Part shown: in pieces, positions 14,028 through 14,166 of the stretch
How positions within the stretch are numbered: position 1 is the stretch's first letter
Layout of the letters: every line of letters starts with the position of its first letter
Sequence record: PZ544513.1
Direction: 5' to 3' (one strand)
DNA from: a phage
DNA: 39,595 bases
Program-made: the position numbers and the translations under genes
The notes under the pieces: generated by a model
Told to the model about the DNA's origin: nothing
Database searches by the model: none
Seen by the model: only the letters and a program-made list of their open reading frames with translations

Positions 14028-14072
14028 AGACCACGGGTCTTGTCCCTTTGTTCGCATTTGAGATTAAGAAAT

Positions 14073-14152
14073 GTCTCCATAGCTCAAACGGTAGAGCGGC
14101 GGGTCGTGATGGCCTATTGCGATTAGGGTTCGAATCCCCCGTGGAGACGCCA
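14073..14152 (+). ncRNA. tRNA-like element (canonical D-arm, T-loop and 7-bp acceptor stem but non-canonical anticodon arm)
   Basis: GTCTCCA..TGGAGAC acceptor stem, D-arm TAGCTCAAACGGTAGAGC, T-loop GGTTCGAATCC, 3-prime GCCA; anticodon stem pairs poorly in every register I tried. Confidence 0.4.
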
Positions 14153-14166
14153 CTAAGGAGTGACCA

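Follow-up and report, generated by a model that had tools for sequence, protein, structure and literature searches.

Here we report a tRNA-shaped element at positions 14073-14152 in the genome of a T7-like coliphage of the genus Kayfunavirus, where it lies between a promoter with its leader (14005-14072) and the Shine-Dalgarno (SD) sequence and start codon of the primase/helicase gene, gene 4 (14154-14169). Analysis of the window, by which we mean the whole 39,595-nt stretch of DNA (PZ544513.1), together with its relatives indicates that the element is real, evolutionarily maintained and tRNA-shaped, and that it is not decaying. Conservation is confined to its top half, the acceptor, D and T arms, and most likely reflects a host tRNA-processing (RNase P) signal or a tRNA mimic, not a normal decoding tRNA. 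Gene 4 spans 14167-15867, and its SD begins 2 nt past the CCA of the element. The locus comprises the following features.

14005-14027 (+): promoter of the phage RNA-polymerase type, a variant of the genome consensus ACTATCACTATAGGGA; it overlaps the stop codon of a 70-aa ORF, 13797-14009
14022-14046 (+): predicted 5'-terminal hairpin of the transcript, GGGAUGAGACC-ACG-GGUCUUGUCCC, homologue of the hairpin after the T7 promoter phi3.8
14047-14072 (+): A/U-rich single-stranded leader, UUUGUUCGCAUUUGAGAUUAAGAAAU; its last base, U, is position -1
14064-14073 (+): TTAAGAAATG, a degenerate copy of the gene 4 SD block TTAAGGAGTG, overlapping the leader end
14073-14152 (+): tRNA-like element (ARAGORN, Rfam RF00005, alignment, pair counts, RNAalifold), 80 nt here versus 79 nt in all other copies
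14073-14079 with 14142-14148 (+): acceptor stem of 7 bp, GTCTCCA with TGGAGAC (sequence)
14082-14097 (+): D arm, GCTC-AAACGGTA-GAGC (sequence)
14100-14104 with 14112-14116 (+): shifted 'anticodon' stem in the substitution-supported register, with loop CGUGAUG at 14105-14111
14117-14123 (+): variable region
14124-14128 with 14137-14141 (+): T stem of 5 bp
14129-14136 (+): T loop in its 8-nt form, TTCGAAT being 14129-14135
14136-14140 (+): run of five Cs, four in other copies; insertion at 14136 relative to MZ234011.1
14149 and 14150-14152 (+): discriminator G, then CCA (sequence)
14154-14160 and 14167 (+): Shine-Dalgarno TAAGGAG and primase/helicase ATG (annotation of relatives)

The acceptor stem, D arm, T loop and GCCA end described in an earlier, sequence-only reading of this DNA were all found in place, and the tertiary signature of a tRNA is complete (U8, A14, G18G19, A21, T54-A58, C56 and G53-C61). 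Two of the detection tools proposed in that reading recovered the element: ARAGORN called a tRNA-Thr(cgt) at 14073-14152(+), and the covariance model RF00005, the sole Rfam family matched in the 39.6 kb, aligned with 14073-14149 at 29.7 bits, just over the gathering score of 29, with E=0.024 when the whole window is searched. Orthologous copies in relatives reach 35.9-38.7 bits with E ~1e-5, and the element is thus more than a chance resemblance; the copy of Kosakonia phage Kc166A, a distant homologue in a genome ~69% identical, scores 27.2 bits, under the threshold. The score derives from the acceptor, D and T arms alone, since the model treats the entire anticodon arm as a local end of 21 nt versus 17 expected and therefore recognises no canonical anticodon arm. 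MFE z-scores are usually uninformative for tRNAs, and that of the element is -1.5.

The copy in this genome has five Cs at 14136-14140 versus four in all 15 other copies read, among them that of a phage whose surrounding 1.5 kb is 99.9% identical, and each of the remaining copies matches over one base fewer than the query. By this comparison the extra C is private to this genome. It drops the Rfam tRNA score from ~36.7 to 29.7 bits and is accommodated as an 8-nt T loop that leaves both stems undisturbed. The one-nucleotide clash between the T-stem and acceptor registers that had been noticed from the letters is real in this window, but it is caused by this single private insertion and is not a property of the family.

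On the + strand, the phage promoter pattern has 10 matches versus 0.35 expected, one of which, ACTATCACCTTAGGGA at 14010-14025, substantiates the variant promoter postulated earlier; relatives keep this promoter whether or not they have the element. Judged from T7 phi3.8, transcription would start (+1) at G14022. The small hairpin that had also been postulated was confirmed at 14022-14046, the segment 14022-14072 folding at -18.2 kcal/mol with z = -3.3. Relatives show paired changes in the hairpin (AGACC/GGTCT to GGACC/AGTCC), and the T7 sequence GGGAGACCACAGCGGUUUCCC-UUUGUUCGCAUU aligns with GGGAUGAGACC..GUCCC-UUUGUUCGCAUU of the window. On the Dunn and Studier map, the T7 RNase III site R3.8 reportedly lies ~23 nt downstream of phi3.8. 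The sequence-only reading had placed the element itself at the position of R3.8; this is correct in part, the hairpin at 14022-14046 being the homologue of the hairpin after T7 phi3.8, but the element is a downstream insertion absent from T7, whose homologous leader has a promoter-proximal hairpin only. No terminator-like site was found in 13700-14300, and we infer that the element is transcribed; a literature search found no transcript-end mapping for any element-bearing phage.

Comparison with related genomes found the same 79-nt element, with its D, T and acceptor features conserved, at the equivalent place in 35 public kayfunavirus genomes, as the earlier reading would have predicted of a genuine tRNA-like structure. 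These are 35 of the ~197 related records covering the locus, the other ~160 having no element, and a single ICTV species contains both states (LM33_P1 with it, 101118UKE1 without). The observation that tRNA genes are not typical of T7-like phages also held, with the element present in 1 of 80 primase loci of IMG/VR; an element-specific pattern found one copy in that database, in phage ST31, and a generic D-arm/T-arm pattern returned ordinary tRNAs only. The GGTAGAGCGGNNGGTC pattern, run over metagenome and genome contig collections, was too generic and gave only chance matches in G+C-rich coding DNA. Among 5,426 complete E. coli genomes, blastn produced no match to the element and hence no sign of recent host capture. 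GenBank labels for the copies are tRNA-Thr, tRNA-OTHER and tRNA-Pseudo (GTG), and one paper mentions a "pseudo-tRNA".

In element-free relatives the leader runs straight to the SD, reading GCATTTGTGATTAAGGAGTG joined to ACCAATG, and a natural element-free junction is GATTAAGGAGTGACCAATG; element-bearing relatives read GATTAAGAAATG, then TCTCC...GCCAC, then TAAGGAGTGACCAATG. The element is an insertion of ~89 bp that separates the conserved promoter leader from the ribosome-binding site of gene 4. The same promoter leader always precedes it and an SD comes directly after it, whichever gene is next: gene 4, an HNH gene (SH5) or a nucleotidyltransferase (Kc166A). Within the cassette slot of SH5, an HNH homing endonuclease adjoins the element.

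Evidence for selection comes from the rate at which the parts of the locus vary. Outside the anticodon arm, 4 of 66 columns (acceptor, D and T arms) vary among 15 main-group copies, all four of them in phage pO91, where two form the compensatory change U2-A71 to C-G. Variation affects 45 of 128 third-codon positions in gene 4 (Fisher p = 3.5e-6 versus the top half) and 16 of 65 leader columns (p = 0.0035 versus the top half). The acceptor, D and T arms evolve ~8x more slowly than synonymous sites, whereas the anticodon arm, with 5 of 13 columns varying, is indistinguishable from them (p = 0.77). Cloverleaf pairing is found in 90.5% of cells over nine distinct sequences, a value that 0 of 500 shuffles reach and that compares with 34-56% in slid controls, with the reservation that most double changes come from Kc166A alone together with a register shift and so represent few independent events. 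RNAalifold independently gives the acceptor, D, shifted anticodon and T helices, and the substitutions in supported stems all improve or keep pairing, with no G-C pair broken. In Kc166A the D arm is identical at 20 of 20 positions, both strands of the acceptor stem are shifted in step, and the T stem, which in the main group contains one A.C mismatch and one U.G pair, is compensated (GGG/CCC to GAG/CUC, and A.C to A-U). The slow top half, the compensated pairs and survival in so divergent a genome contradict the idea of a decaying tRNA gene, which had been among the original proposals: a neutral pseudogene should show the neutral rate throughout and lost pairing, and here the anticodon arm alone evolves at that rate. 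Near-identity across diverged backbones could partly reflect recent recombinational spread, beyond purifying selection alone.

The anticodon arm had been described as broken. It is true that no canonical arm is recognised, but a shifted stem (14100-14104/14112-14116) exists and is maintained. A canonical 5-bp stem (27-31/39-43) with a 7-nt loop, U33 and a purine at 37 was not found, the canonical register giving two pairs; the supported register joins element positions 28-32 with 40-44 around the loop CGUGAUG, with G, A or U at the U33 site and U or A at 37. Substitutions in this stem keep pairing (C.A to U-A; U.G to C-G or U-A; G.U to A-U), and loop positions 34, 36 and 38, three of seven, vary among close relatives at about the neutral rate. 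The anticodon is not conserved, ARAGORN calling cgt, tga, cat and tta (Thr, Ser, Met and Stop) in near-identical copies. Because the loop lacks U33 and varies almost neutrally, ordinary decoding is unlikely. The earlier suggestion of a functional but unusual tRNA accordingly fares poorly as far as decoding is concerned: a supported stem and a canonical loop do not occur together in any register, and the called anticodon flips.

Several other folds and readings of the region were considered and rejected. In the Thr(cgt) register of ARAGORN (26-30 with 38-42), T32C in Seyj3-1 would hit U33 and a pair would be lost through G40A in SH5 and Kc166A; the GUG-anticodon version of the canonical register, which is the tRNAscan 'Pseudo(GTG)' call, has two pairs only; and in the thermodynamically best lower arm, a 10-bp hairpin (30-39/43-52), 8 of the 10 pairs depart only by unpaired cells. 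A coding reading of the mechanical ORF 14048-14326 fails on the window's own extra C, which shifts its frame relative to all relatives. Sequestration of the SD by the element would depend on a 4-bp CACU/AGUG hairpin that appears in the MFE structure only and is absent from the centroid, and the base after CCA varies among copies (C, A or U). Two matches noted by eye, the complementarity of the loop to the 16S rRNA 3' tail (GUGAU/AUCAC) and the T7 primase recognition pentamers GGGTC and TGGTC, are short and not conserved.

At the same leader/SD junction, many Klebsiella phages of the genus Przondovirus, Henu1 and K5 among them, carry a different mini cloverleaf of 66-67 nt, with a 7-bp acceptor stem, a canonical T arm (GGGUUCGAUUCCC) and no anticodon-like arm. 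It occurs in 143 of the 385 phage-database records matching the query, at 80% or more of the query, and its acceptor and T arm are nearly invariant, the few changes keeping pairs; an ORF annotated over it is broken by a 1-nt indel among relatives and was rejected. The gene after the element in Kc166A encodes a mini class II (CCA-adding/poly(A)-polymerase-like) nucleotidyltransferase of the Kc166A/phi15 type, which is present in 195 T7-like phages. In four nucleotidyltransferase phages that were checked, from three other genera, no tRNA-like element was found. A partnership between the element and this enzyme, of which Kc166A would be the one example against four other carriers without the element, was therefore rejected, and the adjacency in Kc166A may be a coincidence of a shared slot.

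Our preferred explanation, put forward tentatively, is that 14073-14152 is a tRNA-derived accessory RNA cassette in the gene 4 leader that provides RNase P-type punctuation of the class II transcript and does not decode. Selection would then keep the tRNA part recognised by RNase P, the 3'-end maturases and the CCA enzyme, and would not keep a usable anticodon. Of the functions originally suggested for the element, a tRNA-like processing signal agrees best with the conservation of the top half, the leader position before an SD and the second-genus element at the same junction. Judging by promoter homology, phage RNA polymerase would transcribe the module from G14022, with read-through from upstream promoters, and the RNA would fold into an L-shaped tRNA-like body, for which the covariation argues. 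Host RNase P would cut at U14072/G14073 and so remove the 5' hairpin and leader, after which 3' maturation near CCA14152 would free a stable RNA of ~77-80 nt, or the module would remain joined to the gene 4 mRNA and cap its 5' end with a structured domain. As tRNA-type punctuation of a class II transcript, the module would have a role comparable to that of the RNase III sites flanking T7 promoters.

The features expected of such a substrate are present, namely the 7 + 5 bp acceptor/T stack, the UUCGAAU loop, G14073, U14072, G-CCA at 14149-14152 and a position inside a longer predicted transcript between functional units. There are exceptions: position -1 is A in pO91, and the encoded CCA is conserved neither in Kc166A, which ends ACCU, nor in the Przondovirus element. 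Most kayfunaviruses and T7 have no such element, so any processing role would be non-essential. The perfect D arm and the paired anticodon stem exceed what RNase P needs (acceptor and T arm), which suggests that the whole L-shape or a released RNA matters.

It is possible, although we regard it as less probable than punctuation, that the released RNA is itself the functional product and acts in trans as a non-canonical tRNA or tRNA mimic, for example as a UCA-type decoder with a 6-bp anticodon stem, as a nuclease-insensitive substitute, or as a decoy or sponge that would occupy tRNA-directed host defence enzymes or toxins whose recognition depends on the acceptor, T arm or elbow. The full tertiary signature, the GCCA encoded in the main group and an anticodon stem that stays paired through substitutions all speak for it. 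Read in the supported register, the main group and Kc166A have UGA at the centre of the loop (pO91 and PDP21P1 have UUA), and of the Ser codons in the long ORFs of the window 22% are UCA (14.6 per 1000), about twice the E. coli average; however, the universally conserved U33 is replaced by G, A or U, position 37 is U, the loop drifts as described above, and the long variable arm that SerRS needs under the tRNA-Ser identity rules is missing. The Rfam model and tRNAscan-based annotations likewise return pseudo or undetermined, and a decoy for an anticodon nuclease should keep the very loop that is not conserved here. Accessory hot spots such as this locus are a frequent home of counter-defence genes, and phage tRNAs have been documented to evade tRNA-targeting defences or to provide rescue from them (PMC10264068, PMC11555353, PMC11464382). 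The CCA-adding-like gene next to the element in Kc166A would also suit a trans-acting RNA, but its many carriers include the four checked phages without the element, and the Przondovirus analogue has no anticodon-like arm.

That the element is a tRNA pseudogene or selfish hitch-hiker, a relic with no present function whose conserved look comes from recent recombinational spread, is unlikely. Its patchy distribution (35 of ~197 records), presence and absence inside one ICTV species, location in a cassette hot spot beside an HNH homing endonuclease in SH5, non-canonical anticodon arm with a drifting loop, 'Pseudo' annotations of the tRNAscan type and the further 1-nt insertion in the window's copy would all fit. 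Yet the conserved island coincides with the top half of the element, while the leader 10-25 nt upstream and the synonymous sites of gene 4 downstream are far more variable, and a conversion tract would not end at the borders of the element. Long-term retention in Kc166A with compensatory changes in the T stem, anticodon stem and acceptor, supported-stem substitutions that uniformly keep or improve pairs, and an analogous element kept in a second genus argue against a relic as well. That the element acts as an RNase III site of the T7 R3.8 kind, or has taken the place of one, is very improbable, although its location just downstream of a promoter homologous to phi3.8 might suggest it. The element is a four-way cloverleaf and not a long irregular duplex with a hairpin of about two helical turns; each of the substitutions observed disrupts the sole long predicted hairpin (30-39 with 43-52); and the T7 hairpin homologue is still upstream at 14022-14046, with element-free relatives running from leader to SD, so that nothing has been replaced.

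The punctuation proposed here has both likenesses and differences among known systems. Like the tRNA genes of T4, T5 and many large phages, the element has a cloverleaf, canonical acceptor, D and T arms and an encoded CCA, is dispensable, and would be phage-transcribed; it differs in that its anticodon stem-loop is not canonical (the register is shifted, U33 is missing and the loop varies), in being a single copy in a 40-kb T7-like genome, placed in the leader of an mRNA at 2 nt from an SD, and in the disagreement of detectors over its anticodon (Thr, Ser, Met, Stop, His-pseudo). Phage tRNAs with altered anticodon loops escape anticodon nucleases (PMC10264068, PMC11464382, PMC11555353). The T7 RNase III sites, R3.8 and others near class II/III promoters, share with the element a leader location downstream of a promoter and before a class II gene, as well as a proposed role in non-essential mRNA processing or stabilisation, but theirs is a long duplex for a different enzyme, and the T7-type hairpin is kept upstream of the cloverleaf. 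tRNA punctuation processed by RNase P is found in mitochondrial polycistronic transcripts and the E. coli thrU-tyrU-glyT-thrT-tufB operon, further RNase P-processed examples being the MALAT1/mascRNA tRNA-like 3' module and the C4 RNA precursor of phages P1 and P7. The element resembles these as a tRNA-shaped module in a longer transcript between functional units, in the acceptor/T-arm half that the enzymes need, and in the small tRNA-like RNA that it may yield as a by-product. The tRNAs of the E. coli operons are genuine decoders, whereas the element, like mascRNA, has no usable anticodon, and its cleavage is a proposal. The tRNA-like structures of plant RNA viruses and the tRNA-like domain of tmRNA also combine acceptor/T-arm mimicry with a non-tRNA lower part; these are 3'-terminal or split-end, use pseudoknots or long-range pairing and have demonstrated aminoacylation, in contrast to a contiguous cloverleaf in a DNA-phage transcript known from sequence alone.

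A broader conjecture, which we consider rather doubtful but worth stating, is that interchangeable tRNA-derived modules occupy one fixed point of the phi3.8-type leader in at least two genera, Kayfunavirus and Przondovirus, where they would divert tRNA-processing enzymes of the host to the punctuation or stabilisation of class II mRNAs, and/or release a mimic against tRNA-directed defence. With the mini CCA-adding-like nucleotidyltransferase that uses the same hot spot in other genera, they might together form an unrecognised tRNA-centred accessory locus.

Phages of both genera are therapy candidates whose tRNA and pseudo-tRNA content is routinely reported uninterpreted, and a selected module of this kind would explain the odd "tRNA-Thr", "tRNA-OTHER" and "tRNA-Pseudo" calls and the spurious ORFs labelled "hypothetical protein" that cover the Przondovirus element. 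Processing of mRNA by RNase III is classically taught from T7-like phages, which, to our knowledge, are usually described as having no tRNA genes. If the proposed interpretation is true, a selected tRNA-shaped leader module would add a second, RNase P-based strategy of processing or mimicry to the T7-like family, a case that the second, different module at the same junction in Klebsiella phages strengthens.

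The window represents a complete-genome-sized Kayfunavirus (T7-like, Autographiviridae, Studiervirinae), and the 1.5 kb around the tRNA-like element upstream of gene 4 (primase/helicase) are 99.9% identical to Escherichia phage vB_EcoP-22664UKE3-2 and its siblings. In the whole 39.6 kb, ARAGORN called a single tRNA-type gene, tRNA-Thr(cgt) at 14073-14152 on the plus strand, and a single Rfam family scored above threshold, tRNA (RF00005), at 14073-14149 with 29.7 bits (gathering score, 29); both programs thus call the element that had been noticed by a sequence-only reading. The features named in that reading, an acceptor stem (GTCTCCA/TGGAGAC), a D arm (GCTC-AAACGGTA-GAGC), a T loop (TTCGAAT) and a terminal G-CCA, were all found in the sequence. 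The Rfam alignment left the anticodon arm as an unaligned local end, with 21 nt versus the 17 expected, and therefore the score derives from the acceptor, D and T arms only.

A decaying tRNA gene had been among the initial interpretations; judged by the pattern of substitutions, the element is not one. Among 15 main-group copies (a distant homologue in Kosakonia phage Kc166A not counted), only 4 of 66 columns outside the anticodon arm are variable; the corresponding counts are 45 of 128 for third-codon positions at the start of gene 4 (codons 1-128; Fisher p = 3.5e-6) and 16 of 65 for columns in the leader immediately upstream (p = 0.0035). All four variable columns are due to phage pO91, and two of them form a compensatory change of U2-A71 to C-G. 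The anticodon arm varies like synonymous sites (5 of 13 columns, p = 0.77). Cloverleaf pairing is retained in 90.5% of cells, a level reached by 0 of 500 column shuffles and compared with 34-56% in slid controls, in a covariation sample of nine distinct sequences with most double changes supplied by one genome. In Kc166A, whose genome shares ~69% identity with that of its nearest relative (PMC8402661), the element occupies the same place with an identical D arm (20/20) and T loop, a compensated T stem (GGG/CCC to GAG/CUC, A.C to A-U) and an acceptor whose two strands have shifted in step. The near-identity of copies across diverged backbones may partly reflect recombinational spread; the conserved island matches the top half of the element (acceptor, D and T arms), not a wider tract. 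Together, these comparisons show the element to be a genuine RNA of four helices that derives from a tRNA, with selection acting on its acceptor, D and T parts.

The one-nucleotide conflict between the T-stem and acceptor registers, also noticed at the outset, is real in the window and absent from the other copies read. The C run at 14136-14140 contains five Cs, versus four in all 15 other copies read from the alignment, among them the 99.9%-identical relative, which places an insertion at 14136; all database matches to the element are one base shorter than the window query. In four-C copies the T stem UAGGG/CCCCG exactly abuts the acceptor strand and the Rfam score rises to 35.9-38.7 bits, while in the window the additional base fits as an 8-nt T loop. 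The fifth C may have arisen by recent mutation or be a sequencing error in the homopolymer. Two more isolated homopolymer-length differences from the closest public genome, MZ234011.1, in a T run at 25033 and a C run at 25131, bear on the question of a sequencing artefact.

The anticodon arm had been described as broken, and indeed no canonical register pairs; substitutions among copies nevertheless indicate a stem in a shifted register, which pairs element positions 28-32 with 40-44 (14100-14104 with 14112-14116 in the window) and closes the loop CGUGAUG. Four changes improve its pairing: C28U (C.A to U-A, 101120B1-2 group), U32C (U.G to C-G, Seyj3-1), G40A (U.G to U-A, SH5 and Kc166A) and G29A (G.U to A-U, Kc166A). 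RNAalifold independently proposed almost this helix (29-33 with 39-43). Thermodynamics alone would favour a 10-bp hairpin, 30-39 with 43-52, which was rejected, as every relevant substitution breaks its pairing. U33 is invariant in tRNAs; the supported loop carries G, A or U at this position, 3 of its 7 positions vary among copies, and the ARAGORN anticodon switches among Thr, Ser, Met and Stop across near-identical copies, which makes ordinary decoding unlikely. The arm is thus non-canonical, with a drifting loop. In pO91, which has U at the U33-equivalent position, and in PDP21P1, G36U converts the loop centre to UUA, formally an ochre-suppressor anticodon; ARAGORN reports the pO91 copy as 'tRNA-Stop'.

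The variant promoter and small hairpin reported upstream of the element are both present.

14005-14027, plus strand: phage promoter ACTATCACCTTAGGGA, a variant of the consensus ACTATCACTATAGGGA

The transcript predicted from G14022 begins with a 25-nt hairpin, followed by UUUGUUCGCAUU. The T7 sequence downstream of phi3.8, GGGAGACCACAGCGGUUUCCC-UUUGUUCGCAUU-GGAGGU, where the T7 map has the RNase III site R3.8, is homologous to this promoter-hairpin-leader unit. Therefore, the R3.8 position assigned to the element by the sequence-only reading belongs to the small hairpin, and the element is an insertion downstream of it. The promoter pattern ACTATCACNNTAGGGA has 10 matches on the plus strand (1831, 5483, 8804, 11636, 14010, 19764, 22585, 23565, 28348 and 35634), of which only 14010 has CT replacing TA at -3/-2 (CACCTTAGGGA), a variant kept in all kayfunaviruses examined, element-bearing or element-free.

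Comparison of alleles shows that the element is a dispensable insertion in the gene 4 leader. It was found in 35 phage-database records, all Kayfunavirus, from Escherichia, Salmonella, Enterobacter, Klebsiella, Citrobacter and Kosakonia hosts, that is, in ~35 of ~197 records covering the locus, and, of the 80 best IMG/VR primase loci, in just 1; one ICTV species includes both phages with the element and phages without it. Element-free kayfunaviruses read GCATTTGTGATTAAGGAGTG/ACCAATG and element-bearing ones GATTAAGAAATG/TCTCC...GCCAC/TAAGGAGTGACCAATG, an insertion of ~89 bp with an apparent repeat of the SD block, 5-11 nt long, at its flanks. This slot is a cassette hot spot, with the following other inserts.

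L009:692-871 (Vec13) and relatives: 59-aa ORF, PHROG 6794
L006:505-870 (SH5): element plus an HNH endonuclease gene (HNH_3)
Kc166A: element plus a 179-aa protein

The element, the 59-aa ORF and the HNH_3 gene are each bordered by copies of the translation-initiation block TAAGGAGTGACC(A/G)ATG (window 14064-14073 and 14153-14166), which suggests cassette exchange through recombination at repeated ribosome-binding sites.

The 179-aa protein directly after the Kc166A element (L461:1518-2057) matches PHROG 1614 'nucleotidyltransferase' (E = 1.5e-28) and, weakly, the Pfam PolyA_pol head domain and PcnB via the class II motif GGcARD...G..pKDwD. It is a predicted miniature class II nucleotidyltransferase with the GGxxRD...DxD motif of CCA-adding/poly(A) polymerase heads; the Kc166A element ends in ACCU, not CCA. 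In 195 T7-like phages infecting Pseudomonas, Dickeya, Pectobacterium, Klebsiella, Proteus and Yersinia, none of them known to carry tRNAs, a homologue likewise fills the amidase-primase slot. The protein gene and the tRNA-like element occur together only in Kc166A, and no tRNA-like element was found in four homologue-bearing phages examined (Ninurta, phi15, Sibilus and 3MF5), so their association is a hint rather than evidence.

A covariance model built from the Kayfunavirus element and searched against T7-like contigs gave weak, recurrent matches to a different group, with the sequence UGGUCAGGCUAAGGUGCACUUGGCGUAGCGCUGCGUUUCAUUCGGGUUCGAUUCCCGGACUGACCA, carried by Przondovirus (Klebsiella KP32/K11-like) phages.

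L417:1186-1253 (IMG/VR contig): Przondovirus element, unannotated
L415, L418, L419, L422-L424, L430, L435, L448, L466-L469 and 27 of L471-L501: further carriers

Its fold is a mini cloverleaf of 66-67 nt, in which a 7-bp acceptor is combined with two short hairpins and a T arm of 5-6 bp (GGGUUCGAUUCCC) that carries the canonical loop UUCGAUU. The synteny is the same (amidase gene, promoter, 5' hairpin, A/U-rich spacer, element, SD); element-free alleles read GTTGTCGC/TTGA/GGAGATTAC, and ~86-90 nt are inserted at the TTGA junction in the others. The element covers at least 80% of the query in 143 of 385 matching phage-database records and is present in 27 IMG/VR contigs. The acceptor and T arm show hardly any variation, and pairing survives the few substitutions present (U to C, C to U, A to G). 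A 'hypothetical protein' ORF often annotated over it was ruled out by a 1-nt indel among relatives. ARAGORN made no call on this element, and Rfam gave only sub-threshold tRNA-clan matches, with 18.5-19.9 bits to tRNA-Sec. The two elements, which may be homologous or of independent origin, have in common the acceptor/T-arm half and the leader position.

Annotation of the Kayfunavirus element is inconsistent across several GenBank records (tRNA-Thr, tRNA-OTHER or tRNA-Pseudo(GTG)). One paper notes in passing a predicted 'pseudo-tRNA', similarly positioned, in DY1, ST31 and LM33_P1 (PMC8402661); our literature search found neither a functional or comparative treatment of the element nor any reference to tRNA-like elements in Autographiviridae leaders. 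Separately, IMG/VR contigs of an unrelated phage (L048:9943-10021 and L080:175-253) carry, adjoining a tRNA-Met, a tRNA with an 8-nt anticodon loop and an ARAGORN four-base anticodon 'tttt', which could be a natural frameshift-suppressor-like tRNA unrelated to the element.

From G+1, U-1, the 12-bp acceptor/T stack and the 3' GCCA, we infer that host RNase P would cut at U14072/G14073. The chief alternative is a function of the released RNA itself, which would be a tRNA mimic, a decoy or an odd tRNA: conservation of the D arm and pairing in the anticodon stem go beyond the RNase P requirement, the supported loop is centred on UGA or UUA, UCA makes up 22% of Ser codons, and phage tRNAs have been described in counter-defence (PMC10264068, PMC11555353, PMC11464382). 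A neutral relic is poorly supported given the compensatory changes and conserved top half, as is an RNase III site, the R3.8-position homologue being the small hairpin upstream. Under the proposed RNase P cleavage, the cut module would act as punctuation in the class II transcript or stabilise it, and would yield a stable tRNA-like RNA.
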